64,000 bases of DNA from Dehalococcoidia bacterium UBA7891. GTDB taxonomy: Bacteria; Chloroflexota; Dehalococcoidia; Lucifugimonadales; UBA826. The notes below the pieces were generated by a model. It was not told where the DNA came from, ran no database searches, and saw only the letters and a program-made list of their open reading frames with translations. Location of the stretch: NCBI GenBank assembly GCA_002500485.1, contig DLRJ01000117.1, positions 69,226 to 133,225 on the forward strand. The letters run 5' to 3'. Of this stretch, positions 11,066 through 39,463 are shown piece after piece (positions within the stretch are counted from its first letter, which is position 1; each line of letters starts with the position of its first letter). A program made the position numbers and the translations under genes.

Positions 11066-11500
11066 CTACGGCTTATTAGGGAGTGCTATTACTCCTGTTC
11101 CAATGACAAGTTTCACCCCATCAGAATTTTCCATCACTACGTCACATTCTAATTTTGTACTGTCCCCAGTCTCATCTTTATCTGTCACTATCCCACTGAA
11201 CGTCAGGTCTTGGTTGTGAGGAACTGTTTGTCGGAAGACGACGTCTATTTTGAGAAGACAAACTGTGTCTGACCAGTCGGTTAAAATTTGTGACATCAGC
11301 GCTATATTCATGGGACCTGGCACAATGGCTTCCGGCATCCCCTCGTTATTTGCTATTTCTTTTGACGTAAATCTTGAAGGGGTGATTTCTTTTTCTCTGA
11401 TTGAAACAAATTCGATCACATCTTTGTCAGTGACGGATTTTTTTATCGGACCAATATCGTCTCCGATTTCAACATCTTCAAAATATAGATTCTCTTTCAT
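11066..11500 (-). CDS. MaoC-like (R)-specific enoyl-CoA hydratase, hot-dog fold
   Basis: 144-aa hot-dog-sized protein with a MaoC-type layout. It overlaps the upstream partner gene by 4 nt. Confidence 0.75.
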   Translation of the reverse strand: MKENLYFEDVEIGDDIGPIKKSVTDKDVIEFVSIREKEITPSRFTSKEIANNEGMPEAIVPGPMNIALMSQILTDWSDTVCLLKIDVVFRQTVPHNQDLTFSGIVTDKDETGDSTKLECDVVMENSDGVKLVIGTGVIALPNKP

Positions 11501-11961
11501 CTATTTTTATTCCTTCTAACAAAAGACTCTGTTACTAAGGCAACGGTCTCTTCATCCTGGTTGCTGAATTTTGTTTCCCAAACAGCAAAAACCATTTTTC
11601 CGGACCGGCCTGTTTTGGCATAAACTTTGTCCAGCTTCGTACTGGCTGAAAGAACATCGCCAGGTCGAATTTCTGCTTTACATTCGATAGATTGACCAGC
11701 GAAAAACCCCAATTCTCCAAATTCAAGCTTTATGTCGGGTCTTGATACCCCTGAAACAAAAACATTGCAGATTGTTGGTGGGGCTACGATATGCCCGGCA
11801 CCATGTTCATCCCCCACGTACCTTGGATTAGTTTCACCTGTCGATTTCGCAAACCCTAATAGCATTTCCCTGGTTAACTCAAAAGTTCCAATCTGTGTTT
11901 CCACTCCAAGCAAACTTCTGTCGTATACGATTCCTTCATCTGTCGTCATTCTGTGCTCCAA
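11497..11961 (-). CDS. MaoC N-terminal-like (FAS1-type) dehydratase subunit
   Basis: 154 aa with the pattern ...F.LTRE....FA..TGE.NP.Y, typical of the non-catalytic partner in HadA/ChsH-type heteromeric hydratases. It is translationally coupled to the downstream MaoC gene. Confidence 0.7.
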   Translation of the reverse strand: MEHRMTTDEGIVYDRSLLGVETQIGTFELTREMLLGFAKSTGETNPRYVGDEHGAGHIVAPPTICNVFVSGVSRPDIKLEFGELGFFAGQSIECKAEIRPGDVLSASTKLDKVYAKTGRSGKMVFAVWETKFSNQDEETVALVTESFVRRNKNR

Positions 11962-11970
11962 AATATGTGG

Positions 11971-12612
11971 TCAGGATTCAAGTTTCACAGCGGTAAAACG
12001 GCCATTTCTTAGTTCCTGTACTAAATCAGATTCATTCGCTATTTTTTTTTCAAAACGTGTCATGCAGGTACCTACCGCACTCACTATGTGGGCGTCGCTT
12101 CCTCCTGTTCCTAAATACCCCTTCGCTTTAATAAGTGATTCGGCTTTTTCTCCTTCTCCTGGCCTGTTGGACCCGTTAAGCTGTTCGACAGTTTTAACTG
12201 TTTCAAAACCAGTTACACCATTATCTAAATATTCAGCAAAACCTATTCCAACTCGACCGGGATGAGCTGGAATTGCTATTCCCCCATAGGTGTCGCAAAC
12301 ATCAACTAGGTTTTGTGCACTAATGTTAACATCTGAGAAATCCAATTCATTGGTGATTTGTTCTGAGATCCCGTAAACGAGAAAATGCCCGGTGTCTGTG
12401 TCTAATTCAGCCCCTTTCAAAATGATTATTCCATCATCTGAGGCTAACTTACTATAGTCCACATCGTGGTCGAATTGCCTGTGCTCGGTTAAGACAAATC
12501 CATGTATCGATTTGCCTTTTCTTCGTAGCACATTAACCCATTTTATGTATTGTTCTACCGTTGCTCTGGAATCATCCGAGGCAACTGAGTGAGTGTGTAA
12601 ATCAAGGAGCAT
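11971..12612 (-). CDS. PHP-domain metal-dependent phosphoesterase
   Basis: MLLDLHTHSVASDDS (the HxH motif of PHP) plus later His/Asp ligands (PAHPGR, GGSDAH). Confidence 0.75.
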   Translation of the reverse strand: MLLDLHTHSVASDDSRATVEQYIKWVNVLRRKGKSIHGFVLTEHRQFDHDVDYSKLASDDGIIILKGAELDTDTGHFLVYGISEQITNELDFSDVNISAQNLVDVCDTYGGIAIPAHPGRVGIGFAEYLDNGVTGFETVKTVEQLNGSNRPGEGEKAESLIKAKGYLGTGGSDAHIVSAVGTCMTRFEKKIANESDLVQELRNGRFTAVKLES

Positions 12613-13502: not shown

Positions 13503-14504
13503 TTAGTTTTCTAAAGACCTTTTGGGGTTGGGATGTTCTAATACTTCTGGATTGACTAAATTTTCAGGCATGGTATTCCTGTACACTTTGACGACCTCGC
13601 TGGCTGCTCGTTCTTCTAGCTCAAGGGTTGATTCCTGGGAGAAGAAAGCTGTGTGAGGGGTTATCAGTATGTTTTCCAGTTGCATTAAGGGATGATCCCG
13701 TGATGGTTCGTTATCCACCATCACATCTAGACCTGCACCACCTATTTTACCCTCTGATAAGGCCTCGTATAAGGCTATTTCATCAATTAAGGGACCTCGT
13801 GCAGCATTGATTAGGAAAGCATCGTCTCTCATCAAATCAAATTGTTCCGATCCGATCATTTTCTCTGTGTTGGGAGTTAATGGTGCATGAAGTGAAACAA
13901 AATCCGAATTCTCCAGTAGTTCCTCAAGGCTTACCAGTTTACCGCCTGAAGATTCTACTATTTCTTTAGGAGTGAAAGGGTCAGATGCCAATATGTTTAA
14001 ACCGAAGACAGCGGCTTTTTCTGCTACTGCTTGTCCGATCCGACCAAATCCCACAATGCCAATAGTTTTACCTCTCAGTCTTTTGATACGCATCGTTAAA
14101 CCCAAATGACCCCAACCGTCAGATTTTACTGATCGATCGAATAGGGCTATCTTTCTATTCCAAGTGTGTAACATTGCTAAAACGTGGTCAGAAACTTCAT
14201 CTACGCAATAGTCTGGAACGTAGGTCACCGGTATACCAAGTTCGCTTGCTGTACTCACATCTATATTGTCAACTCCGACTCCAAATCTTCCTATCGATAC
14301 ACAATTTTTGGCGGACCTAATTACATTCCCTGTGACTTTTGCAAAACATGTCATGATCGCATCCACGTCCCTAGCTAACTCAATCAGAGTATCTTCGTCC
14401 CCATCAGGGGCTACTATGACCTCCGCTCCGGCAGCCTCTAAAACAGCCCTCTCAGGATCTGTTGTTGGCCATACATGATCTGTAATAAGGACTTTCCAAC
14501 CCAT
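13503..14504 (-). CDS. D-isomer-specific 2-hydroxyacid dehydrogenase (CtBP/PGDH-like)
   Basis: GIVGFGRIGQAVA NAD-binding motif. Catalytic region ...NAARG..ID...L...GAGLDV...EP...PH. Confidence 0.85.
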   Translation of the reverse strand: MGWKVLITDHVWPTTDPERAVLEAAGAEVIVAPDGDEDTLIELARDVDAIMTCFAKVTGNVIRSAKNCVSIGRFGVGVDNIDVSTASELGIPVTYVPDYCVDEVSDHVLAMLHTWNRKIALFDRSVKSDGWGHLGLTMRIKRLRGKTIGIVGFGRIGQAVAEKAAVFGLNILASDPFTPKEIVESSGGKLVSLEELLENSDFVSLHAPLTPNTEKMIGSEQFDLMRDDAFLINAARGPLIDEIALYEALSEGKIGGAGLDVMVDNEPSRDHPLMQLENILITPHTAFFSQESTLELEERAASEVVKVYRNTMPENLVNPEVLEHPNPKRSLEN

Positions 14505-14537
14505 TTATTTCTCCCTTTCCTTACGATTAACTAACAA

Positions 14538-16166
14538 CTAAATTGATGTTAAATCTCTCGGCATGGATTTAAACATACACCCTTCAACAAAAACTTCGAA
14601 GAAATCAGGAACAGTTTCCAATTCCAAATGGTCGATGTCCAATACTAACTTTTCTATCTCCATTCTCATTCTCATTGATTTAAGCATTAGTATTGCGCCT
14701 TCGAGCGAAGCATTTCCCACCTTTTCGATCTTTTTTATGGGAAAATTGGCTATAAAGCCAATGTCCCGAGCATTTGATGAATTTATGTAGTTTGCAAAAC
14801 CTCCAGCCAAGTATAGTTTGGATATTTTACTAATTGGTGCACCGAAATGCCGTAACGCTAAATATTGGCCACAATAGTTGGCAGATTTTGCCTGGGCCAG
14901 GGCACTAATATCGGATCGGTAGAGAGCCATGTTTTCTTCTTCGGAAAATATGTATGCATTCTCTCCATTTGAGTAAACTCCTAGGTCGGTCATAAGATTG
15001 TATTTTCTCAGTTCGGCCAACAAATCGATCAACCCTGATCCACAGATCCCTTGGATACTTGCATCCCCTATAGTAGCGATCTTCAAAATCCCATCTTGAA
15101 TTTTCACGGATTCAACAGCTCCTTCGTATCCAGGCATCCCGTATGTTATCTCGCCACCCTCAAATGCTGGCCCAGCAGGGCAGGAAGCTGCGACCATTTT
15201 ATCTCGAGTTCCGATTACAACTTCAGTATTGGTGCCTATATCCACTAACATTACGGGGTGTTCGGCTTCATCAGCCATTATCGCCAGTAAATCTGCTGCC
15301 ACATCTGACCCTACGTGAGACCCAATTAAAGGTCCACTATAGATTCGAGCCTGGGGGAATATTCGTAGACCAAGTTCTTTTGCACTTATATTAATTGCGG
15401 TGGATTCTCGTGAACCAGATTCCATAGCATGTTGAATAATCGATTTGTAGGGCTTTTCCCCTACAGATTGGACATTTACACCAAAAAGTATGTCCCTCAT
15501 TGTAGTGTTTCCAACTAGTACAGCGTCATAAATTCTCCTACGATGAATTTTATGCTCCCTAAGCATTTCACCAATTTCATAATTGATCGAGGATAGCAAT
15601 ACCTTTTTTAATTCACCTTTATTTGGCCCACCATCATAGGAAATCCTGTTCATTACATCGGACCCGCCAAATCTTTGCGGGTTTTCAAAAGAGGAAGTGG
15701 TTAATATGTCACCACTTTCAAGGTCTATGATGCTTAATACTATGGTTGTGGTTCCAATATCCCCAGCCAAACCTAATATGTGCCCCTGATACCTGTCTTC
15801 ATCCATATCCTCTATGAAGACCCTGTCACCTCTTTTGGTAACGACGCTTTCTAAACTAACAGGTCTCTTCACTCCTGAGGTTAATATTTTTGGTTGCCTT
15901 CTTAGCGTGGTAAATTCAACATTGGAGTTTAAATCTTCGACTACAGCTTGGCAGGCCAACCTGTAATCACCTCTTAAGAAAGTTTCTTCTTTCGTCGGTT
16001 GGCTTAGGGATTCCATCCCTTTTTTTATTTCCACCACGCACTCATGACATTCCCCATTTCTACCACATGCGGTTGGAACTCTAACTTCAAGATCATCAGC
16101 GTAATCAAATATAGTTCTTTGAGGGCCTGTCGGATATTCTTTGCCGTTGGCAAAAACTGGAGACAT
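14538..16166 (-). CDS. RACo/RamA-type reductive activator of corrinoid proteins ([2Fe-2S] ferredoxin + ASKHA ATPase)
   Basis: N-terminal plant-type ferredoxin cysteines CGRNGECHEC...C. ASKHA phosphate motifs DIGTTT and DIGTNTE. The ICGSGLIDL segment is typical of COG3894/DUF4445 proteins. Confidence 0.85.
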   Translation of the reverse strand: MSPVFANGKEYPTGPQRTIFDYADDLEVRVPTACGRNGECHECVVEIKKGMESLSQPTKEETFLRGDYRLACQAVVEDLNSNVEFTTLRRQPKILTSGVKRPVSLESVVTKRGDRVFIEDMDEDRYQGHILGLAGDIGTTTIVLSIIDLESGDILTTSSFENPQRFGGSDVMNRISYDGGPNKGELKKVLLSSINYEIGEMLREHKIHRRRIYDAVLVGNTTMRDILFGVNVQSVGEKPYKSIIQHAMESGSRESTAINISAKELGLRIFPQARIYSGPLIGSHVGSDVAADLLAIMADEAEHPVMLVDIGTNTEVVIGTRDKMVAASCPAGPAFEGGEITYGMPGYEGAVESVKIQDGILKIATIGDASIQGICGSGLIDLLAELRKYNLMTDLGVYSNGENAYIFSEEENMALYRSDISALAQAKSANYCGQYLALRHFGAPISKISKLYLAGGFANYINSSNARDIGFIANFPIKKIEKVGNASLEGAILMLKSMRMRMEIEKLVLDIDHLELETVPDFFEVFVEGCMFKSMPRDLTSI

Positions 16167-16243
16167 TGGTTATACCTTCTAACTGTATTTGGCTAGGTGG
16201 ACTCTACAGTGAGCAAAGAAAGAATGTGCTTTTAGTCTTCATA

Positions 16244-16489
16244 TTAATTACTAGGTTCCCACGCCGAGCGATAATCGAGGTCATCACTTCCGAGACAAAG
16301 ATACAATTTTCCAACAGAGCCCGGCCTATCTTGGTTGCGGCAACCAAATTTCGCGGTGCATCTGTCGTCAACATTTTTGTACGGGCATCTCCAGGTGAAT
16401 ACTTCCGAGGCTGTATCTGAGATAGACTTGAAGATTGATTCAAGCTTTCCCAAACTTTTCCTATATTTTTCTTGGTCGACCGGTTCCAT
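16244..16489 (-). CDS. small four-cysteine protein (hypothetical)
   Basis: 81-aa ORF between the corrinoid protein and activator genes. Cys pattern is C-x8-C-x5-C-x14-C (RCPYKNVDDRCTAKFGCRNQ...LYLC). Its codon pattern looks more native than that of the overlapping 101-aa frame (16204..16509). The RBS is weak. Confidence 0.4.
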   Translation of the reverse strand: MEPVDQEKYRKSLGKLESIFKSISDTASEVFTWRCPYKNVDDRCTAKFGCRNQDRPGSVGKLYLCLGSDDLDYRSAWEPSN

Positions 16490-16526
16490 ATTATTGTCTC
16501 AGTAGCCACAAAATACTTTATAAGAC

Positions 16527-17285
16527 TTAACCAAGCGGACTTATTGAAGGCTCGGTATCGGGGCTCATGAAAGTTTTAGCTAATTCCACACAGGATATAG
16601 CATCTTTTCCGTAACCATCCGCACCCATATCATCGGCAAATTCCTGGGAAAGGGGGGCTCCGCCAACCATAATTTTCACCACCTCCCGCATCTCAATTTC
16701 TTCAAAGGCATCTATGGTTCTACCCATATTAGGCATTGTGGTTGTTAATAATGCAGACATTCCTAAAACACCAGCCTCATTCTCTTCAACTGCCTCTATG
16801 AATTCCTCTGGAGAAGTGTCTACGCCCAAATCGATAACACTAAAGCCGGCTCCTCTCAACATCATGATGCAAAGGTTCTTTCCAATATCATGTAAATCTC
16901 CTTTCACTGTTCCCATTATCACAGTACCAACAGGTTCTATACCTGAAGCCGATAGAATTGGTTCAACGTGAGTCATCCCGGCTTTCATAGCTCTTGCAGC
17001 CACAAGCACTTCTGGTACAAATATAAGATTATCTCTGAATTTCACGCCGACAATCGCCATTCCTGCTATGAGGCCATCATCCAGAATTGTATTGGCTGAA
17101 AACCCGGCTTCTAGAGCCTTTTGGGTCAATTGGTCAACTCTATTATTGTCTCCTTTTATCAAAGAAACTGATATATCTTGCATTAAGGGATCTGCTTCGT
17201 TCCACAAGTTTCTAATGTGTTGTTGTTCTGCAGAGTTGGTTACATACTCTAATTCCGCCTTCAAATCTTCATTAGTTACTGGCAT
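16527..17285 (-). CDS. cobalamin-binding corrinoid protein (MtaC/MtbC/MetH-B12-domain-like)
   Basis: Helical cap domain followed by the B12-binding Rossmann domain. It carries the DxHxxG signature (GDLHDIGKN), SALLTTT and MVGGAP. Confidence 0.9.
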   Translation of the reverse strand: MPVTNEDLKAELEYVTNSAEQQHIRNLWNEADPLMQDISVSLIKGDNNRVDQLTQKALEAGFSANTILDDGLIAGMAIVGVKFRDNLIFVPEVLVAARAMKAGMTHVEPILSASGIEPVGTVIMGTVKGDLHDIGKNLCIMMLRGAGFSVIDLGVDTSPEEFIEAVEENEAGVLGMSALLTTTMPNMGRTIDAFEEIEMREVVKIMVGGAPLSQEFADDMGADGYGKDAISCVELAKTFMSPDTEPSISPLG

Positions 17286-17393
17286 ATCGTAAACGAACCT
17301 CTGATACTGATTGGGCTATGGTTTATTAGAAATTGGACATAAATTTGCATTCAAGGGGAGCAATTATACGACTAAATTATAATCGGACATAGC

Positions 17394-18431
17394 TTACCCG
17401 TGCCTTTCAGCAGACCAATCTTTGATTGCTAAAGGAATCTCCATCAGGTTTTCTATTTTGGTCGCCAATGGCACTGCGCATTCTGGACCAATCATCTGGA
17501 CTCCAGCCTCCAAGCATTTGTAGACCTCTTGTCTTACTTCTTCAGGGCCTCTGGCGTACAAAGTTTCCGGATTATTTATATTTCCGACAAGAGTGATGCC
17601 ACCATCTACAGCGTCCATAGCCTCTTGAGGATCATTTTTAGAATCAAAGTGAAAAGAGGCCATTCCTGTTTGGGCAATATATGGCATCCTATCCACGGTT
17701 TTCCCGCATATATGCAAAATGAGAGGTGCTTCCAACACATCTACCATTTCAGTATGAATATCTTGTAAAAATTCTTTATAGTATTCTCCACTCACTAAAT
17801 CACCTGTGGCGTGATCGGGGAATGTCAGTGCATCAGCTCCTGCATCTATCTGGGCTTGTCCGAAAAGTACGGAAACTTCCTTCAATTTTTGTAAAGCCCT
17901 CTTTGTTTCATCTGGATTGTCCACTGTGCCCAATAAAAAACTCTCTACACCAAAAACGTGATAGGCGAGAGTCCATGGGCCCATTGTTTTTCCAATAACA
18001 GCTACCTCATCTCCAAACTCATTTTTCAGCATTTTAATTGAGTCAGTTATAGCTTTCATATCTCGGTGTTCCAGTATGTTGGCCGGTATTTTCACATCAT
18101 CAGCGGACTTCCAAATGGGGTTATACATTCGGACTGTGGGCCAATTGTCTTTTTCTTCCCATTGCATTTCACATCCTAGGGCCGATGACTCTTGTATTAT
18201 GCTGAAATAGGGTGAAACGGAGTCGAAACCTAATTCCGTATGGCCAGTCGCTGCCAACCTAGCTGCCAACTCTCCGTCCTGGCATGCGTATGGGAAAGGA
18301 GCATCTACCAGATCCATTAATTCCACTGTCGCAACATTGGTTGGATTTACGGCTGGTGTTCTGTCAACAGGTTTACCGGCTAAAGCGTTCATTACCCTTT
18401 CTTTGGACGACATGGTTTCTTGATAAGGCAT
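17394..18431 (-). CDS. uroporphyrinogen-decarboxylase-family methyltransferase (MtaA/MtbA-like, zinc/thiol type)
   Basis: URO-D fold length (345 aa). H240-x-C242 (LILHICGKT) plus C318 (IGPECAVP) matches the H-x-C...C zinc triad of methylcobamide:thiol methyltransferases. Strong AAGGAG RBS. Confidence 0.85.
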   Translation of the reverse strand: MPYQETMSSKERVMNALAGKPVDRTPAVNPTNVATVELMDLVDAPFPYACQDGELAARLAATGHTELGFDSVSPYFSIIQESSALGCEMQWEEKDNWPTVRMYNPIWKSADDVKIPANILEHRDMKAITDSIKMLKNEFGDEVAVIGKTMGPWTLAYHVFGVESFLLGTVDNPDETKRALQKLKEVSVLFGQAQIDAGADALTFPDHATGDLVSGEYYKEFLQDIHTEMVDVLEAPLILHICGKTVDRMPYIAQTGMASFHFDSKNDPQEAMDAVDGGITLVGNINNPETLYARGPEEVRQEVYKCLEAGVQMIGPECAVPLATKIENLMEIPLAIKDWSAERHG

Positions 18432-18449
18432 TTCTCAACCGCTCCTTCT

Positions 18450-19124
18450 TTATGTCTGACTGAAACCTAAGGTACTAGTGGTCATTTGACCTCTCATGGA
18501 TTCTGCTTGCATCATCGTTTCGACACTACTTACGTTCCGCGAATAAGGTAGCAGAATTCTTAATAATTCATCGTGATTATTCCGGCACTCGAAAGCCACT
18601 TCTTGATCTCCCATTTTGTCCATTTCACCATATTTGGAAAATCCTGCCACAATCATCCTCAGGCGCATAGCTGGATTTTTAGCTTCGCCATTAACAGATA
18701 TCTGGTAGCATCTGGTGTTGTCCCTATCAAAACCTTCTGCGTTGATGATTAAATTTGATTTGCTATCCTTTATCGTCATTGCGGACGGGCTTGTGGCATA
18801 TTCCGGATCTTTTCCAACAGCCTGAGCCAATAGAAACCGGACAGGCCTGCTATGAATTAAACCGCACTCAAATTTGGCTTGATTATGCGTCCCAAGGACA
18901 GGAGTCATGCCTCCCAGAGAGACTAATAAGCCTCGAATTTCTTCTATTCGGTTTTCTACACCAGGTTTGGTGCTGAATGACCACACAGTGAAGACAGAAT
19001 TTTTTACGTATAAGCCTACAGATATTTCATTAAATCTTTTGTCCGTGGGAACTAGTTCCAGACAGCGACCATATTTTTCTATAACGTCTTTTGGTCTCGG
19101 GCCATCGTAGGACACAAGTTTCAT
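18450..19124 (-). CDS. hypothetical protein, internally duplicated Cys/His module
   Basis: Start revised to ATG 19124 (AAGGAG 7 nt upstream, 2 nt after the upstream stop). The track's start at 19196 overlaps the preceding gene. 224 aa, no family recognised. The motifs R-C-(L/Y) and F-E-C-x3-H-x4-R-x-L-L each occur twice. Confidence 0.7.
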   Translation of the reverse strand: MKLVSYDGPRPKDVIEKYGRCLELVPTDKRFNEISVGLYVKNSVFTVWSFSTKPGVENRIEEIRGLLVSLGGMTPVLGTHNQAKFECGLIHSRPVRFLLAQAVGKDPEYATSPSAMTIKDSKSNLIINAEGFDRDNTRCYQISVNGEAKNPAMRLRMIVAGFSKYGEMDKMGDQEVAFECRNNHDELLRILLPYSRNVSSVETMMQAESMRGQMTTSTLGFSQT

Positions 19125-19126
19125 GT

Positions 19127-20029
19127 TTATACTCCTTGTTTTTTCCCCAATAGTGTTGAAAATGCGGAGATATGCTCTGGTCCGGTTCCACAGCATCCAC
19201 CAATGATATTGACTCCAATTTTTTTTAACCGCATGAATTTTTCGGCCATGTAGTCGGGTGGTTCAGGATACAGTATTTCTCCATCTTTGAGCGATGGAAT
19301 ACCAGCATTTGAATGAACCAAGAGTGGAGAGTCAGTAGCATCTCTCATCATAGTTGCTATCTCTATCATGTTATCTATTCCGTTTCCGCAATTGGTCCCT
19401 ACAATATCGGCCCCAGATTTGACTAATTCTATTGCGGCCTGTTCAGGTGTTACGCCCATCATTGTAAAGTACCCCCTTGGGCCTTTATCAAAGGTCATAG
19501 TCGATATTACGGTTAAATTGGTATTTTCTTTAGCAGCTCTGATAGCTATGGTGGCTTCATCAAGGGCTGTCATAGTTTCTACAACCACTCCGTCAGCACC
19601 GCCTAATTCTAAGGAAGTTACCTGACTACGAAAGGCCCGGTAAAGCTCTTTTTCAGAGACTATCCCCAAAGGTTCTAGGAATTCACCACTTGGGCCTACA
19701 GACCCACACACGAAGGTTCCTGGCTTCGATTGACTTTTTGCATGCTCAGCTGCGAGCCTATTAAATTCATCTACTTTGTCTCCAAATCCGTAGTGGGTTT
19801 GCCGAAATTTGGTGCCACCGAAAGAATTAGTGAGAACCATGTCAGATCCTGCATCAAAGTAGGATTTTGCCATTCTTTGGACAACTTCTGGGTGACTTAC
19901 ATTGAACTCTTCAGGGCATCCGCCCGGCTCGAGGCCATTTTGTTGTAAAAAAGTCCCGGTAGCTCCATCTGAAACTAACATCTCTCCATTGGATATTCGA
20001 TCAAGTATGCTTTGGGATTTTAAATTCAT
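19127..20029 (-). CDS. homocysteine S-methyltransferase domain protein (MetH N-terminal module-like)
   Basis: DGATGT, VLTNSF, VVETMT, GTNCG and IGGCCGTGPEHI. The last two supply the Cys3 zinc site of Pfam S-methyl_trans proteins. 300 aa, stand-alone. Confidence 0.85.
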   Translation of the reverse strand: MNLKSQSILDRISNGEMLVSDGATGTFLQQNGLEPGGCPEEFNVSHPEVVQRMAKSYFDAGSDMVLTNSFGGTKFRQTHYGFGDKVDEFNRLAAEHAKSQSKPGTFVCGSVGPSGEFLEPLGIVSEKELYRAFRSQVTSLELGGADGVVVETMTALDEATIAIRAAKENTNLTVISTMTFDKGPRGYFTMMGVTPEQAAIELVKSGADIVGTNCGNGIDNMIEIATMMRDATDSPLLVHSNAGIPSLKDGEILYPEPPDYMAEKFMRLKKIGVNIIGGCCGTGPEHISAFSTLLGKKQGV

Positions 20030-20044
20030 CTTGTTTTTGGCCTT

Positions 20045-20386
20045 CTAATTTGATTCTATCCATCCGTCGATGGATCCTGCGCTTGGGTTTCGAGATCCAT
20101 TTTTATGTAAATCCCTCAACTTGGCCACAAAATTCTGCGGCATCCCATTGTTGTAACGGTCTCCGATGGACTTCAACACATGATTCAATTCCCCGGGCAT
20201 TTCAAAATATTCACCCCACTCCCATGCGTCAAGGTATTCATCTGAACCATAACTTCCATCCAGCATAGAAATCGCATCTACAGCTTCTTGGAATCTCGAC
20301 TCCAGTGGAAGGGATTGGGTTTCAGATTCATTGGTTGCTTGCACTTGTACCGGAATTTCCTTCCAATACATTATTCGCACTTTCAA
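20045..20386 (-). CDS. small conserved protein, 'virulence factor' (Pfam Virulence_fact-like) family
   Basis: N-terminus ...IMYWKEIPVQVQA...L..RFQEAVD..SML.GS.GSDEYL..W matches my memory of the I-V-Y-W-R-D-I-P-A-Q-V type family annotated 'virulence factor'. This is a recollection, not a search result. TTG start with AGGA upstream; ATG 20371 is an alternative. Confidence 0.55.
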   Translation of the reverse strand: MKVRIMYWKEIPVQVQATNESETQSLPLESRFQEAVDAISMLDGSYGSDEYLDAWEWGEYFEMPGELNHVLKSIGDRYNNGMPQNFVAKLRDLHKNGSRNPSAGSIDGWIESN

Positions 20387-20527
20387 ATTTCTAATCCTAG
20401 GGGAACGTAATCACAGCTATTATAGTTCCATCAGCAAACATACAGAAGCCGCAGCCTCCATATGCCTATTTCTAACCGATGTGTTATAAATCAATAATTC
20501 TTAATAGTGTTCGTCAAGGAGGGGGTT

Positions 20528-21576: not shown

Positions 21577-22683
21577 TTAGATCTGATACTTGACTATCGA
21601 ATAATGATCGAGTTCCAGTCCAAGACCTGGTTTGTCATGGAATGGAGACCAATAACCATCCTTCTGTTTTGGGAAATCTACGTACCATAACTCGTCCCCT
21701 TCTAGAGACACATTCATGTATTCAACTACTTTCAAATTCGGTGTTGCACATGCTACATGTAGATGGGCTAATTGTAGTGCGTGTGGGGCTACTGGGAGGT
21801 TAAATGAATGTGCCAGATGTGCTACTTTCACCCACTCGGTGACACCACCAACCCGTCCGATATCAGGCTGAACAATATCCACCCCTCCGCGGGCGATAAG
21901 TTCCCTAAAACCATATTTTGTGTATTCGTGCTCCCCGGTAGCTATAGGAATAGTAGTGGCCTTGGATATTTCGGCCATTCCGTCAATATCGTCAGGTATC
22001 AACGGCTCCTCAAGCCAGCCTATCTGGAACTGTTCAAACTCCTTTGCCATGTATATGGCTTGTTTTCGATAATAGCCGTTGTTTGCATCGATGTAGATAC
22101 TGACATCATCTCCTACCGCTTTTCTTACTGCAGCTACTCTTTCAATATCTTCTCTTTCCGATAGACCAAAATCCTTGCCTACTTTCATTTTGACTCTTGG
22201 TATGCCATCGGACACATAACCTGTCATTTCCTCGACAAGCTCTTTTTCTGAGAAATTGGTCCAGCCGCCGCTTCCATAGACTGGGACTGAATCTGTATAC
22301 GCTCCAAGTAATTTATAAAGTGGTAGATTTACGTATTTTCCTTTCAGATCCCATAGCCCTATATCGATGGCAGAAATAGCGCAGAATGCTATCCCTTTTC
22401 GGCCATATCCTCTCACTTTCCAATACATATCGTTCCATAGTTTCTCAATGTCCAGGGGGTCTTTACCTATCAGTTCTTGTTTGAGAGAACTTTCGATGAC
22501 ATCAATAACCCCTGGCGAAGCGTAAGTCATCCCGAGGCCTTCGATATCTGCATCAGTTTTAATATGGACGAAAATTTGGCCTCTTCCTCCAGACCCTTCC
22601 TTTGGTGTGGGTATGGTGGCATCTTGTATTGGCTTCCCTTCAGGACTGTGAAGATGAGTTGTGGTGATGTCAGTTATTTTCAT
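21577..22683 (-). CDS. enolase-superfamily enzyme (mandelate racemase/muconate lactonizing family; sugar-acid dehydratase-like)
   Basis: KMKVG, IDANNGY, WLEEP and ATGEHE metal- and acid/base-bearing strands of the MR/MLE barrel. Confidence 0.85.
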   Translation of the reverse strand: MKITDITTTHLHSPEGKPIQDATIPTPKEGSGGRGQIFVHIKTDADIEGLGMTYASPGVIDVIESSLKQELIGKDPLDIEKLWNDMYWKVRGYGRKGIAFCAISAIDIGLWDLKGKYVNLPLYKLLGAYTDSVPVYGSGGWTNFSEKELVEEMTGYVSDGIPRVKMKVGKDFGLSEREDIERVAAVRKAVGDDVSIYIDANNGYYRKQAIYMAKEFEQFQIGWLEEPLIPDDIDGMAEISKATTIPIATGEHEYTKYGFRELIARGGVDIVQPDIGRVGGVTEWVKVAHLAHSFNLPVAPHALQLAHLHVACATPNLKVVEYMNVSLEGDELWYVDFPKQKDGYWSPFHDKPGLGLELDHYSIVKYQI

Positions 22684-35519: not shown

Positions 35520-36620
35520 TTGTTAGAACAATTCAAAGTGCAACCGGAAGATCAAGTTAGAGTAACCGAAGATAACCTTAGAAAAACGGTGGAGGCTGTA
35601 TTTGCAAAAATGGGGCTTGACGACTCTGATTCAGCATTGGGGGCTGATGTTTTAGTAAAAGCAGATATGAGAGGTGTTGACACTCATGGTGTCTCTAATA
35701 TGTTGCGGTCTTATGTCACCGGGTATGGGAACGGGGAACTTAATTCTCATCCTAATTGGACTATAACAAGAGAAACCCCGTCTACCGCAAATATTGATGG
35801 CGATAGAGGCTTGGGGATAATTGTAACTCCGAAAGCAATGGATATAGCGATTGAAAAGGCTAAGAATGTGGGTATGGGAGTCGTGACTATTCATAATTCG
35901 AGGCATCTTGGCATGGCTTCATATCATGCTTTGAAAGCAGTGGACAACGACATGATAGGCATGTGTATGACATCGTGCCCTCCTGGGGTTTTACCAACCT
36001 TCGGAGCAGAACCTGTTTTGGGTACGAATCCGATAGCGATTGCGGCTCCTGCTGATAAAGAGGCTCCCTTTGTGTTTGATGCTGCCATGAGTGCAGTTGC
36101 AGGCAATAAACTAGGGCTTGCTAGAAGAAATGGCACGCAATTATTAGGAGGATGGGTGGCCGATCATGATGGTAGCCCTATTATGGATAAAGTGGACCCC
36201 CCAACACCAGGCTATGAAGGTTCTGCTTCATCCTATTTGCTTCCTGTTGGAGGGACGCGAGAATTAGGCTCACATAAAGGGTATGGGATGATGTGCATGG
36301 TCGACATATTAGGAGGTATTCTGACAGGAGGCGGGTATGGGATGAACCCTGGCCGACCAAATTTTGGGCATTATGTAGCTGCCTACAACATCGAAGCCTT
36401 TATGGACACAAAAGAATTTAAAATAACCATGGATGAATGGATTAATATGCTGAATTCTTCTAAACCAGCACCCGGTCATGATCGAGTTATGTATCCGGGC
36501 CAGCCCGAGCATGAGGCAGCGATTGAAAGATCTGAAAATGGTATACCCTTACATTATGAGGTTATAGACTGGTTTAAAGATATATGCGGTGAATTGTCTA
36601 TTCCCTTTTCCCTGGTTTAG
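35520..36620 (+). CDS. Ldh_2-family (malate/L-lactate/sulfolactate-type) NAD(P)H-dependent dehydrogenase
   Basis: RGVDTHGV, LGTNPIA, GSHKGYG motifs of the Ldh_2 family. TTG start with GAAGGGGGA RBS. Confidence 0.8.
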   Translation: MLEQFKVQPEDQVRVTEDNLRKTVEAVFAKMGLDDSDSALGADVLVKADMRGVDTHGVSNMLRSYVTGYGNGELNSHPNWTITRETPSTANIDGDRGLGIIVTPKAMDIAIEKAKNVGMGVVTIHNSRHLGMASYHALKAVDNDMIGMCMTSCPPGVLPTFGAEPVLGTNPIAIAAPADKEAPFVFDAAMSAVAGNKLGLARRNGTQLLGGWVADHDGSPIMDKVDPPTPGYEGSASSYLLPVGGTRELGSHKGYGMMCMVDILGGILTGGGYGMNPGRPNFGHYVAAYNIEAFMDTKEFKITMDEWINMLNSSKPAPGHDRVMYPGQPEHEAAIERSENGIPLHYEVIDWFKDICGELSIPFSLV

Positions 36621-36631
36621 TGTAGATATAC

Positions 36632-36662
36632 TCGTCAGGGCTCCTTTATTGGGCCCTGACGA
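36632..36662. terminator. bidirectional stem-loop between convergent genes
   Basis: TCGTCAGGGC (36632-36641) pairs perfectly with GCCCTGACGA (36653-36662) around an 11-nt loop. It sits 12 nt after the Ldh_2 stop and 7 nt after the ThDP-enzyme stop. The T-tract is weak (AAATTGTTT). Confidence 0.55.
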
Positions 36663-36668
36663 AATTGT

Positions 36669-38282
36669 TTAGTAATCCCTGAAAGGATTAGGCATTGGCC
36701 CTACTGGTACCTCTATCAATGTCGGAGCCTCTATACCCAGGGACTCTTGCACAGCTTTTCCTAATTCAGGTGCTCCACCTTCGACTCTTACACCCCTTAC
36801 ACCAAAAGCTTCAGCGAGCTTCATGAAATCTGGGTTATGAACCTCAGCTCCATATTCTCTTCCATCAAACATGTTGACCTGATCTCTCATTACATTTCCG
36901 TAAGCGCTATCGTTAAACACAACAGCAACCACGTTAATGTGGTGTTTTGCAGCTGTGGCTAATTCTTGTACATTGAACATAAATCCACCATCCCCACAAA
37001 CAGCAACGACTGCCTTATCTGGTTGTGCAACTTTAGCGCCTAATGCGGTTGGATAAGCATATCCAAGGTTACCGTAATAGGAGGAGGTAATGTAGGTCCT
37101 CGGTTCATAAACTTCAAATTTATTCCTACTGTAATATCCAATTTGCGTCATGCCGGAGATGAATATTCCATCATCTGGCATGACACTTCGAATGACTTTG
37201 GTAAAAGATTCTTGCGGCTCAATTACAGTGCCAGGATTAAATCGTTCGGCCTTTACCTTTGTGAGTTCTTCTTCTCTGCTTTCACGAGGCGGCATCACGT
37301 TTTTTAGTCCATTTAGAATCTCTGTGAGAGTCTTTTTGGCGTCGCCATTTATTCCTTCTGTGTTGTCATAATTACGACCGATTTCTTCATCGTCTATGTC
37401 GATTTGCAGGACTTTTTGCCCTGTGAATTGTTGGTTGTTCAATAACCTTGTTCCAACCGCTACGACCAGGTCATAGTCTTGGATTTTGTTTTCAAAAAAG
37501 GTGTCGTTTTTGAACCGGAAACTACCAATCGATAGGTAACTTCTGTCTGAAATAGCCCCTCTACCTTCACCGGTTGCTATAACAGGGGCTTGTAGAAATT
37601 CCGCTAAAGATGTGAGTTCCTTTGATGCTTCTCCAGATATCACACCTCCACCAGCCCATATAAGAGGATTTTTTGCATTGGAAATAAGATCGATTCCCCG
37701 ACTTACGCTTTCTTTACTGCCAACAGGTCTCTCATATTTTCCAGCTTCCAATAACTCAATGTCAGCTGTGTCGGAAAGGGTTTCTGGGGGTATTTCTATT
37801 TGAACCGGCCTTGGCCTGCCTGTTTGAAGTTGCTTAAAGGCCTCATGTACGGCCTCTGGTATCTTAACGGGATCCAGTATTAGTTTTTGATGTTTGGTAA
37901 TGGGTTTTATTGTTTCAATTTGACCTTTTATTTCATGGAGCATTCCTCTTTCAAGGCCAATGTGGTCTCTCTCAATTTGACCCGAGACAACTAAGATAGG
38001 AGATGATGCTGAATATGCTGTACCTATTCCTGCACTGGCGTTTTGAAGGCCCGGTCCTGGCACAACCAATGCTGTGCCTATTCCTCCTCCTGCCCGTGAA
38101 TATCCATCAGCCATGTAGGTAGTAGCTTGCTCATGCCGGGTATTAATAAACCGTATTCCGGGTTCTTTTGCCAATCCGTCAAGGAGATGGTAAAGCTGTA
38201 CCCCCGGCAACCCAAAAATTACTCTTACCCCTTCTCGGTAAAGTGATTTCGCGAGAGCTTCGCCTCCAGTCATTTTTGTCAT
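36669..38282 (-). CDS. thiamine-diphosphate-dependent enzyme (acetolactate-synthase-like family)
   Basis: Three-domain Pyr/central/PP layout. ThDP motif GDGGFMFNVQELATA...NDSAYGN. Confidence 0.85.
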   Translation of the reverse strand: MTKMTGGEALAKSLYREGVRVIFGLPGVQLYHLLDGLAKEPGIRFINTRHEQATTYMADGYSRAGGGIGTALVVPGPGLQNASAGIGTAYSASSPILVVSGQIERDHIGLERGMLHEIKGQIETIKPITKHQKLILDPVKIPEAVHEAFKQLQTGRPRPVQIEIPPETLSDTADIELLEAGKYERPVGSKESVSRGIDLISNAKNPLIWAGGGVISGEASKELTSLAEFLQAPVIATGEGRGAISDRSYLSIGSFRFKNDTFFENKIQDYDLVVAVGTRLLNNQQFTGQKVLQIDIDDEEIGRNYDNTEGINGDAKKTLTEILNGLKNVMPPRESREEELTKVKAERFNPGTVIEPQESFTKVIRSVMPDDGIFISGMTQIGYYSRNKFEVYEPRTYITSSYYGNLGYAYPTALGAKVAQPDKAVVAVCGDGGFMFNVQELATAAKHHINVVAVVFNDSAYGNVMRDQVNMFDGREYGAEVHNPDFMKLAEAFGVRGVRVEGGAPELGKAVQESLGIEAPTLIEVPVGPMPNPFRDY

Positions 38283-38299
38283 GAATGTTTCTCCTAGTT

Positions 38300-39463
38300 C
38301 TAGGTTCTATTTTTGTAGCTTTCTGTTGCCTTGTTGAGAGATACAGTTTTCAAGGCTTGCAAGTTATCTCTATTATCTTCAGACCATTTTTGAGATGTCA
38401 CCAAATTGTTAAGTGAGCCTTGGAAATGGGGCATTACGTATCGGGCAATCAATTCGTAACTGTGCCGTACTTGTTCTCTAGTTCCCCATTCTGTGGCTTG
38501 AATCATAAAACCGCCAAACCCTCCGCTTTGATCACCCAGTTCTTTGATTTTTTCTATGAGATCATCTGGTGTTCCAACACACCAAGCCCCGTTATCAACC
38601 ATGTAGTCTATTATTTTGTCCTTGGGTCCGTCGTAATCAAAAGGTGTTCCCATAGTTTGATGGAAGTAGTCGTATTGGTATGCGGCCGATTTTTCTCTTG
38701 CTTGGTCCATAGCTTCTTTTTTGGTGTCAGCTAGATGAACGTGTAAGACGATTCTCCAGTCATTTCTGTCGACTGTTTGATGATATTTTTCCGCTGTATC
38801 TTCTGCGATCTTCCAGAAGTCTCCCAAATTAGATGCTATGCTCCCACCTCTTACTACGCTAACAGAAAGCACTCCCAGGCCATGCTTACCGGCTGCAACC
38901 ATCCCTGAAGGTGATTGTGCTGCTGCAACGGCCATCGGAAAATGTGGTTCTGTGTAGGGTCTCAAATGTATTAAAGCCTCTCGTAAAGTGAACCAGTCAG
39001 ATTCATAGGTTATAGGCTCTGTTTCTGTAAGAAGCCTTTTTATTATGCCTATTGCTTCGTCCATGCGGGGTCTTTGTAAAGATGGTTCAATACCAAGTGC
39101 ATAGGCATCCGAAACCAAAGCACCTGGCCCTACACCCAACATCACTCTTCCTCGAGTCAAATGATCTAATAAAACCATACGATTTGTAAGCATAAGAGGA
39201 TGGTGATATGGCAAACTGGCGACCCCTGTGCCTAGTTTTATGTGTTTGGTTCTTTCTGCTGCGACTCCCATAAATACCTCAGGAGAAGATATAGTCTCCC
39301 ATCCCGCGCTGTGGTGCTCACCTATCCAAGCCTCATCGAAACCTAGATGATCCAACCACTGTATCGTTTCCAGATCCCTTTCTAGGGCGAGAGTTGGGTT
39401 GTCGCCCAGCCAGTGGAAAGGTGCTAGGAAAATTCCAAATTTCATGCGGTTGGGTAAGGTCAT
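38300..39463 (-). CDS. LLM-class (luciferase-like) flavin-dependent monooxygenase/oxidoreductase
   Basis: MKFGIF..., GFDEAWIGEHH, LGTGV..LPYHHP, GRV.LGVG: bacterial luciferase-family TIM barrel. Confidence 0.85.
   Translation of the reverse strand: MTLPNRMKFGIFLAPFHWLGDNPTLALERDLETIQWLDHLGFDEAWIGEHHSAGWETISSPEVFMGVAAERTKHIKLGTGVASLPYHHPLMLTNRMVLLDHLTRGRVMLGVGPGALVSDAYALGIEPSLQRPRMDEAIGIIKRLLTETEPITYESDWFTLREALIHLRPYTEPHFPMAVAAAQSPSGMVAAGKHGLGVLSVSVVRGGSIASNLGDFWKIAEDTAEKYHQTVDRNDWRIVLHVHLADTKKEAMDQAREKSAAYQYDYFHQTMGTPFDYDGPKDKIIDYMVDNGAWCVGTPDDLIEKIKELGDQSGGFGGFMIQATEWGTREQVRHSYELIARYVMPHFQGSLNNLVTSQKWSEDNRDNLQALKTVSLNKATESYKNRT

Follow-up and report, generated by a model that had tools for sequence, protein, structure and literature searches.

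An eight-gene corrinoid methyltransferase operon in a SAR202 genome, with two new protein families and a putative route from methylated sulfur compounds to methionine

Dehalococcoidia bacterium UBA7891 is represented here by a stretch of 64,000 nucleotides (contig DLRJ01000117.1 of assembly GCA_002500485.1, positions 69,226 to 133,225), referred to in its whole length as the window. On the minus strand of the window, positions 13503-20386 hold a run of eight open reading frames (ORFs) with the make-up of a corrinoid-dependent methyl-transfer operon (Table 1). The run comprises seven genes that had been singled out from the letters alone, in what is called here the sequence-only reading, and a 2-hydroxyacid dehydrogenase gene (2-Hacid_dh) that follows them. 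In the direction of transcription the order is VirF-HcyMT-U224-MtaAL-CorP-U81-RACo-2-Hacid_dh, where VirF is a PF13769 protein, HcyMT a homocysteine S-methyltransferase, MtaAL a URO-D/MtaA-like protein, CorP the corrinoid protein and RACo the reductive activator, and where U224 and U81 stand for two families named after the 224 and 81 residues of their window members. The successive gaps between the eight ORFs are 15, 2, 18, 108, 37, 77 and 33 nt. Families were assigned from Pfam and NCBIfam scans of the window proteins; together with the ORF list, these confirmed the seven co-directional minus-strand genes and the families that the sequence-only reading had named. The GTNCG, GGCCG, DxHxxG and four-Cys motifs that it had pointed out are likewise real, and they are invariant in alignments of 82-127 orthologues that include other phyla.

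Table 1. Position and assignment of the operon genes and of the region upstream of them (window coordinates)
Feature	Position	Strand	Basis
Presumed promoter region, common to the operon and the divergent alpha/beta-hydrolase gene	20387..20506	-	inferred from coordinates
VirF, 113-aa PF13769 'Virulence_fact' protein	20045..20386	-	Pfam 6e-14
HcyMT, 300-aa stand-alone homocysteine S-methyltransferase of the MetH-N-terminal/MtgE (bacterial 'Bmt') type	19127..20029	-	PF02574 1e-60
U224, 224-aa tandem-repeat Cys/His protein of a new family	18450..19124	-	no Pfam or NCBIfam match
MtaAL, 345-aa zinc methyltransferase of the MtaA/CmuA family (UroD superfamily)	17394..18431	-	PF01208 3e-66
CorP, 252-aa corrinoid protein, B12 cap and Rossmann B12-binding domain	16527..17285	-	PF02607 + PF02310
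U81, 81-aa four-Cys protein of a new family	16244..16489	-	no Pfam match
RACo, 542-aa RACo/RamA-type ATP-dependent activator	14538..16166	-	[2Fe-2S] Fer2 (PF00111), Raco_middle (PF17651), RACo_C_ter ASKHA ATPase (PF14574)
333-aa D-isomer-specific 2-hydroxyacid dehydrogenase, last gene of the operon	13503..14504	-	PF02826 + PF00389

Relatives of the operon were sought by a pattern scan in which each GTDB species was represented by one genome and which matched 207 species; the best 80 loci were analysed, with synteny counted by phmmer of the window proteins against all of their ORFs. These loci belong to metagenome-assembled genomes (MAGs) of the Dehalococcoidia/SAR202 group, joined by four from Entotheonella/Tectimicrobiota, and in the closest of them, among which are MAGs designated 'SAR202-II', the U224 protein is 85-92% identical to that of the window. 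The eight-gene order is colinear in all 80 loci, so that the conservation of gene order proposed as a check in the sequence-only reading is established, and the central five genes are found in 73. A second, more distant U224 subfamily is hosted by MAGs of Terriglobia (Acidobacteriota), Poribacteria and Latescibacterota, and by soil and marine metagenomes, where its context is always U224-MtaAL-CorP-(U81)-RACo. The conserved unit is a core of five genes encoding U224, MtaAL, CorP, U81 and RACo.

The genes that accompany this core in the distant loci differ from cluster to cluster. A Pterin_bind gene, usually with VirF, lies 3' of RACo in at least 13; genes for methylenetetrahydrofolate reductase (MTHFR) and DUF5981 are present in 8 of 39 and PurU in 9 of 39, and a divergent GntR/FCD regulator gene lies upstream in 17 of 39. 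HcyMT and VirF are found upstream in eight loci and HcyMT 3' of RACo in four, and some of the distant clusters have no HcyMT gene. The variable part is the acceptor, either tetrahydrofolate (THF), with enzymes that oxidise methyl-THF, or homocysteine, and the core is constant. This constancy of the core against changing acceptor genes places the MtaAL/U224 pair on the donor side, an arrangement as would be expected if MtaAL, together with U224, loads the corrinoid and other methyltransferases unload it.

The scores of MtaAL exceed the NCBIfam cutoffs for the MtaA/CmuA family (TIGR01463, 244.4 vs 235.4 bits) and for PRK06252 (260.5 vs 244), and fall under the equivalog cutoffs of MtaA_Meth (231 vs 400) and MtbA (203 vs 600). 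In the PDB the best match is MtaA of M. mazei (4AY7, 5.6e-48), whose H-x-C...C zinc ligands align with those of MtaAL, and the phmmer score of 167 bits against MtaA stands far above that against any other solved UroD-family protein. The predicted zinc ligands H240, C242 and C318 are invariant in 127 orthologues from several phyla, and conservation across these sequences is extreme, with 154 of 345 positions at least 97% identical. No second URO-D gene is present in the window. Within the UroD superfamily, a His-Cys-Cys coordination sphere marks S- or Se-methyltransferases, and O-demethylases replace the Cys (Kountz and Balskus, PMC10418091). Because the His-Cys-Cys site of MtaAL is strictly conserved, a thioether or methylthiol donor is favoured, and MtaAL is proposed as the donor-side methyltransferase (MT1, the enzyme that methylates the corrinoid) for a thioether-type substrate. 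The methyl-sulfur class of donor suggested in the sequence-only reading fits this site (PMC10418091; 10.1101/548461).

A donor other than sulfur has to be weighed at this point. Haloalkanes, aromatic methyl ethers and methoxy compounds are also substrates of UroD-superfamily MT1s (PMC13222342), and the family whose NCBIfam cutoff MtaAL passes bears the name of CmuA as well as of MtaA. The donor might then be a methyl halide, as for CmuA, or a methoxylated compound, with the dehydrogenase and the GntR/FCD regulators possibly handling a hydroxy-acid product; the 2-Hacid_dh gene found after RACo in 49 of 53 loci, the FCD-type regulators of the distant clusters and a single Ldh_2 gene, noted within one distant cluster (L093, 16035-17081), are in keeping with such a scheme. 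Set against it are the invariant His-Cys-Cys signature of sulfur and selenium chemistry, from which O-demethylases depart (PMC10418091) and which is foreign to the zinc-free CdmB (PMC13222342), and the much greater nearness of MtaAL to MtaA than to other solved UroD-family proteins. A non-sulfur donor is on these grounds quite unlikely. Methyl selenides and methyl halides as such are considered less likely than methylmercaptopropionate (MMPA), dimethyl sulfide (DMS) or methanethiol.

The gene directly upstream of MtaAL encodes U224, which matches no Pfam family even at E<=5 and no NCBIfam model. Its start is placed at the ATG at 19124, 2 nt past the stop of the upstream gene, with the support of homologues of 222-226 aa; a longer, mechanically called ORF (18450-19196, 248 aa), which adds 24 codons and would overlap the HcyMT gene by 70 nt, finds no such support. 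The 2-nt spacing suggests translational coupling of HcyMT and U224. An AlphaFold model built from 33 homologues (pLDDT 84.6, pTM 0.78) predicts two beta-beta-beta-alpha units, then a helix at the C terminus and a disordered, though highly conserved, tail. Because its two halves align profile to profile (hhalign, 97.3% probability, E 2e-11), each ending in F-x-C-G-x-x-H, U224 is an internal tandem duplication of an alpha/beta module of ~95 aa. Within the SAR202 subfamily C87, H91, C180 and H184 are invariant, and C87, C180 and H184 are at least 90% conserved over both subfamilies. The two C-x3-H motifs are obvious candidates for a metal site, and U224 is proposed, from these features, to be a metal-binding partner of MtaAL.

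Two attempts to connect U224 with known families were rejected. That it might be a divergent pterin-binding or TIM-barrel domain, a check called for in the sequence-only reading, is argued against by the predicted tandem repeat, since the model holds no (beta-alpha)8 barrel and a Foldseek search with it against PDB returned no neighbour (best E 0.04, TM-score <0.25). A relation of either U224 or U81 to DUF1638 or another Pfam family was dismissed for want of any match even at E<=5. As a separate observation, residues ~145-217 of U224, after the second C-x3-H, match 5-15 repeats in very long ankyrin-repeat proteins (P0143, P0165, P0235 and others). Pfam Ank models find no match on U224 itself, and these alignments were taken not as homology but, probably, as a repeat-inflated resemblance of the helix pair that follows the motif.

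The distribution of U224 is narrow. Its 692 close homologues are nearly all either proteins without a name or 'hypothetical' proteins of Chloroflexi/SAR202 MAGs, a HMMER search of 1.84 billion proteins recovered just 159 representative clusters, and all named carriers are MAGs; the plasmids of PLSDB contain no U224 homologue and no close homologue of MtaAL. In both subfamilies the U224 gene lies 5' of the URO-D gene, either adjacent to it or separated only by inserts resembling toxin-antitoxin genes. Interruptions of the operon usually fall, and in many SAR202 relatives fall only, at the U224/MtaAL junction (L004 10719-12704; L006 10851-11607; many of L028-L090), and they consist of DUF4268, DUF433 and DUF5615 genes; a family of ~321 aa occupies the same junction in 29 loci.

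The position of U224 5' of MtaAL in every locus, its membership of a phylum-spanning core and its invariant C-x3-H motifs also lend themselves to a different division of labour, in which U224 would be the true substrate:corrinoid MT1, and MtaAL and HcyMT would both serve the acceptor side, the former by methylating a low-molecular-weight thiol and the latter homocysteine. MtaA-type enzymes are classically the second, acceptor-directed methyltransferase (MT2), and the pterin-less cluster would otherwise consist of two 'acceptor-type' enzymes with no classical donor enzyme. In known MT1s, however, the corrinoid domain docks on a large TIM barrel, and the tandem repeat of U224 is unlike any of these enzymes, whereas MtpA, MtsA and CmuA show that homologues of MtaA can serve as MT1 (10.1101/548461; PMC13222342). 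Moreover, the two U224 subfamilies are only ~28% identical, against scores of 505-552 bits for MtaAL of the second subfamily versus the window protein, which is unusual for a substrate-specific catalytic subunit. U224 as the donor enzyme is accordingly rated improbable, and a donor-side MtaAL assisted by U224 remains the preferred assignment.

On the acceptor side, HcyMT is the proposed methyl-Co(III):homocysteine methyltransferase, as judged from its relatives and its conserved residues. Its best PDB match is the homocysteine domain of T. maritima MetH (1Q7M, 8e-50), ahead of BHMT (4e-22) and MmuM (1e-7), and the zinc ligands C214 (GTNCG) and C279/C280 (GGCCG) are invariant in 82 sequences. 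The best NCBIfam model is PRK07534 (Bmt), at 247 bits vs a cutoff of 338, followed by YitJ at 244, with MmuM at just 73. The name of that best model, betaine--homocysteine S-methyltransferase, and the absence of the gene from some distant clusters would suit a corrinoid-independent enzyme of the Bmt/BHMT/MmuM type, acting on betaine, S-methylmethionine or dimethylsulfoniopropionate and merely co-located with a corrinoid system that serves the methylation or demethylation of a thiol or selenide, or a similar purpose. This appears highly improbable in view of the shortfall from the Bmt cutoff, the low MmuM score, the 2-nt gap to U224 and the fixed position of the gene in the 77 of 80 SAR202 loci that have it; in addition, Mausz et al. 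have reinterpreted the bacterial 'Bmt' as the MtgE subunit that handles homocysteine in a split, corrinoid-dependent enzyme (PMC12478193).

VirF is found in 50 of the 80 SAR202 loci, immediately 5' of the HcyMT gene, and in the distant clusters it adjoins a Pterin_bind or an HcyMT gene. It thus goes with the acceptor modules, homocysteine- or pterin-binding, and not with the donor core. Residues Y7, W8, P12, Q14, Q33, D37, M41, G44, Y51, L52 and W55 are invariant. Its single-sequence AlphaFold model (pLDDT 42) was unusable and was left out of the analysis.

The hub of the system is CorP, whose nearest NCBIfam models are MtgC_2 (203 bits vs 370) and pyl_corrinoid (185 vs 215). Its D130-x-H132-x-x-G135 motif, the His-on DxHxxG signature, is invariant in 118 sequences, and the protein is predicted to be the methyl carrier. 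RACo is a member of its family and not an equivalog of a named activator (AcsV 298 bits vs 800; RamA 96 vs 500). The cluster ligands C34, C40, C43 and C72 are invariant in its orthologues. Of the 80 loci, 9 end at a contig edge, and among the 71 that extend far enough downstream, 53 carry the gene. The corrinoid-centred operon with a MetH/MtgE-type HcyMT and a RACo/RamA-type reactivase that the sequence-only reading described is supported by the motifs and families of its proteins. Between CorP and RACo, and always there, U81 is encoded in 76 of the 80 loci of the SAR202 set and in the majority of the distant ones; it has no Pfam match even at E<=5, and C35, C44, C50 and C65 and the R34-C-P-Y37 motif are invariant in 116 sequences. 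U81 may possibly be a metal or redox helper in the loading or reactivation of the corrinoid. In some SAR202 relatives a 119-aa ORF with a weak Polyketide_cyc2/SRPBCC match (E 0.001) lies between U81 and RACo (L001, 12980-13339; also L002 and L003); the window does not have it.

The last gene, for which membership of the same transcript had been suggested earlier, proves to be a regular member of the operon, as 49 of the 53 loci that have RACo also have 2-Hacid_dh behind it, at a median distance of 27 nt, and the gene is retained in the pterin-containing SAR202 clusters described below. Its product scores below all NCBIfam equivalog cutoffs (phosphoglycerate dehydrogenase 250 vs 454; glyoxylate reductase 229 vs 455). 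The 2-hydroxyacid dehydrogenases, together with the FCD-type regulators, hint that a substrate or product may be a 2-hydroxy or 2-oxo carboxylate.

A pterin-binding methyltransferase module, which the sequence-only reading had reported missing from the cluster and from the 64 kb, is indeed lacking there. Pfam found no PF00809, MTHFR, MetE or MttB (PF06253) among the 58 window ORFs of at least 81 aa, and neither the E. coli MetH pterin domain as a phmmer query nor a profile built from the stand-alone pterin proteins of SAR202 matched anything in the window. The further claim, that the MtaA-like enzyme stands instead of such a module, is not supported, for other SAR202 lineages possess both, and other phyla join the core to Pterin_bind, MTHFR and PurU. 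In three of the 80 closest loci (L028, L029, L034), phmmer with the E. coli domain located a 348-aa pterin ORF between MtaAL and CorP. With this ORF as query, 1482 PF00809 homologues were retrieved, of which the best 120 show 63-93% identity, and the three contexts examined from among these best 120 all lie inside this same cluster; the pterin gene again stands between MtaAL and CorP in loci among L175-L180. The order in these clusters is VirF-HcyMT-U224-MtaAL(-second MtaAL)-Pterin_bind-CorP-U81-(YitJ-like HcyMT+MTHFR)-RACo-2-Hacid_dh.

These pterin-containing SAR202 loci have a GC content of 61% vs 42%, and their proteins are 51-75% identical to those of the window. Two of the three contexts have adh_short and MR_MLE genes downstream, and the window cluster is also flanked by such genes, one on each side; in the third (L177), other genes come first and then adh_short genes. 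Because the pterin-containing clusters share these flanking genes, the window cluster is most simply read as a reduced form of a 9-11-gene SAR202 cluster, from which the folate branch and extra paralogues have been lost at this site, and MtaAL would be an added donor module that does not stand in for the pterin module. Two of the GC-rich clusters (L175, 7716-9910; L178, 5731-7910) were seen to carry two tandem MtaAL paralogues, 67% and 75% identical to that of the window, both with the H-x-C...C zinc site, and to encode a 631-aa YitJ-like fusion of S-methyl_trans and MTHFR between U81 and RACo.

The pterin genes also bear on how far the system can be called folate-independent. The pterin gene beside orthologous clusters, which was to count against such independence, is there in three of the 80 closest loci and in many distant ones, and is absent near the other 77; folate independence is at most a property of the reduced cluster, the same cluster in relatives having a pterin gene. 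It may be, then, that CorP, HcyMT and RACo form an ordinary split methionine synthase fed by methyl-THF through a pterin subunit encoded elsewhere in the genome, with MtaAL and U224 as an optional second source of methyl groups. The pterin genes of the orthologous and distant clusters indicate that the CorP family is adapted to a folate methyltransferase as partner, the distant clusters bear MTHFR and PurU as well, and all SAR202 stand-alone pterin homologues whose context was examined sit in this cluster beside CorP. Furthermore, the MtgBCDE genes of Ruegeria are dispersed, with MtgB an added methyl source (PMC12478193). Opposed to this, no PF00809 gene is present in the 64 kb, 77 of the 80 closest orthologous clusters have none within 10 kb, and the contexts examined, a small sample of three proteins from the best 120 of 1482, showed no trans-encoded pterin copy. 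A split synthase supplied in trans is a realistic, if tentatively held, possibility.

The reading preferred here, with a probability of roughly 45%, is a relay from a thioether-type donor to the Co(I)-corrinoid and on to homocysteine, with ATP-dependent repair by RACo. MtaAL, probably with U224, would move the methyl group of a small methylated substrate, with thioethers or methylthiols such as MMPA, DMS and methanethiol as candidates, to Co(I)-CorP; HcyMT would then pass it from methyl-Co(III) to zinc-activated homocysteine, yielding methionine, and RACo, possibly helped by U81, would use ATP to re-reduce corrinoid that had lapsed to Co(II). The net reaction, R-S-CH3 + homocysteine -> R-SH + methionine, would be the homocysteine analogue of the methylthiol:coenzyme M (CoM) reaction. 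Precedents exist for both halves, as MtaA homologues serve as MT1 on thioethers with a separate second methyltransferase for the acceptor (10.1101/548461), and MtgC, MtgE and RamA yield methionine in roseobacters (PMC12478193; PMC5764234). The relay to homocysteine offered in the sequence-only reading is therefore plausible and now better founded, apart from the substitution of MtaA for the pterin module that it had assumed.

Several points weigh against such a relay. MtaA-type enzymes are usually found on the acceptor side, transferring methyl from cobalt to a thiol, and the transfer from a thioether to Co(I) is thermodynamically uphill (10.1101/548461). The presence of the chloromethane enzyme CmuA in the same NCBIfam family leaves the zinc ligands as the sole support for the sulfur assignment. 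U224 could itself be the donor methyltransferase, and the rest of the genome may encode a pterin partner or else a full MetH or MetE. Finally, the scheme leaves VirF, U81 and the conserved 2-Hacid_dh unexplained.

A broader proposal may be attached to the core, namely that it constitutes the cobalamin-dependent methyltransferase with which aerobic bacteria take methyl groups from methyl sulfides (DMS, methanethiol or MMPA), with U224 and U81 as essential components, and that SAR202 bacteria use it to pass methyl groups straight to methionine, which would be a folate-independent, B12-dependent route to methionine in an abundant deep-ocean group. Taken as a whole this is unlikely. The gene for a cobalamin-dependent DMS methyltransferase proposed in aerobic bacteria was still unidentified in 2019 (PMC6548844), and the core is a reasonable candidate for it, although the link is speculative.

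In the dark ocean, SAR202 belongs to the most abundant groups of bacteria, and the core is also present in uncultured Acidobacteriota, Poribacteria, Latescibacterota and Entotheonella. Should the relay exist, it would be a new way for methylated sulfur compounds, or related ones, to enter the metabolism of methionine and one-carbon units, and would add one more requirement for vitamin B12 in the ocean; the richer operons of relatives would also feed methyl groups into folate. It would further supply a candidate gene set for aerobic cobalamin-dependent demethylation of methyl sulfides, for which genes have so far never been found, define U224 and U81 as highly conserved new families, and give a metabolic context to the misnamed 'Virulence_fact' family. 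The pterin-containing and pterin-less versions amount to a natural experiment on the gain and loss of acceptor branches in modular B12 methyltransferases. Full-text literature searches found no published account of the cluster or of the functions of U224, U81 or PF13769.

The surroundings of the operon are those of a housekeeping chromosomal region. Pfam assigned the 50 other larger ORFs of the window to functions that include the arginyl- (ArgRS), cysteinyl- and prolyl-tRNA synthetases, genes of the methylerythritol phosphate pathway and rpsB-tsf-pyrH-frr. The neighbours of the operon, both on the opposite strand, are an alpha/beta hydrolase gene on the upstream side and, downstream, an adh_short gene. 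Synteny within SAR202 extends past the operon (window 11066-12612 and 21577-22683; L001, L178), downstream to adh_short, PHP_C, two FAS1-like dehydratase-fold proteins and a large M16 peptidase, and upstream to the alpha/beta hydrolase, MR_MLE enolase-superfamily genes and ArgRS. No B12 or SAM riboswitch or other Rfam family was detected in the whole window at the gathering threshold or at E<=1, and a scan for promoter and terminator consensus sequences returned nothing convincing upstream of the operon, with fewer sites than in shuffled sequence. Elsewhere in the window, an Ldh_2 dehydrogenase gene (35520-36620, plus strand) adjoins genes for a thiamine pyrophosphate-dependent enzyme (36669-38282, minus strand) and a luciferase-like flavin monooxygenase (38300-39463, minus strand); no link between this neighbourhood (35520-39463) and the operon was established.

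Among known systems, the type 1 mlp clusters (Kountz and Balskus, PMC10418091) likewise combine an MtaA-like His-Cys-Cys Mlp with a corrinoid protein and a RACE/RamA activator and have no THF methyltransferase, and a role in methyl-sulfur or methyl-selenium metabolism has been proposed for them (PMC10418091). They have at least two Mlps (Mlp2 and Mlp3), occur in obligate anaerobes, mostly Firmicutes, and show neither conserved synteny nor an HcyMT, whereas the window has a single MtaAL, fixed synteny, an HcyMT and the U224 and U81 families. The operon is not a type 1 mlp cluster. The chloromethane systems CmuAB and CdmBCA (PMC13222342) share with it a UroD-superfamily MT1, a corrinoid carrier and a second methyltransferase, and CmuA falls with MtaAL in TIGR01463; unlike MtaAL, however, CmuA is fused to its corrinoid domain and CdmB is free of zinc, and the acceptor is THF, served by a pterin-binding MT2. 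The MtsA/MtsB and MtpA/MtpC systems of Methanosarcina (10.1101/548461) come closer, with an MtaA-family His-Cys-Cys zinc enzyme and a small corrinoid protein. In these methylthiol:CoM systems the methyl group of a thioether goes to Co(I), a second methyltransferase passes it to a thiol and a RamA-type activase is needed, which is the same layout. They differ in that the acceptor here would be homocysteine or THF and not CoM, that the hosts are bacteria, that U224, U81 and VirF are present, and that MtaAL scores below the MtaA and MtbA equivalog cutoffs.

The split methionine synthase and MtgBCDE systems of Ruegeria pomeroyi and Phaeobacter inhibens (PMC12478193; PMC5764234) also place a stand-alone central corrinoid protein beside a MetH-type HcyMT, have a RamA/RACo-type reactivase in place of the activation domain of MetH that depends on S-adenosylmethionine, and add a substrate-specific donor methyltransferase acting on the same corrinoid protein, in aerobic marine heterotrophs; the fuller clusters of relatives possess, in addition, an equivalent of the pterin-binding MtgD and MTHFR. 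Of the marks of a split MetH, the window has the three-Cys site of PF02574, a corrinoid subunit of PF02607 and PF02310 and a Fer2-containing RACo reactivase, and it has neither PF00809 nor DUF1638 (PF07796), which Pfam matched to no window ORF. In contrast to MtgBCDE, the donor enzyme here would be an MtaA/UroD-family zinc protein with U224 and not the MttB-family (PF06253) MtgB, DUF1638 is replaced by U81 and a PF13769 protein, no pterin-binding subunit is encoded in the 64 kb, and the genes form a single operon that ends in a 2-hydroxyacid dehydrogenase. By analogy, the operon would function as a hub like MtgBCDE, with an MtpA/MtsA-like enzyme in the place of MtgB. It extends a recently described theme and adds no new principle; what is new are two protein families, U224 and U81, within the known kind of multi-component corrinoid methyltransferases.

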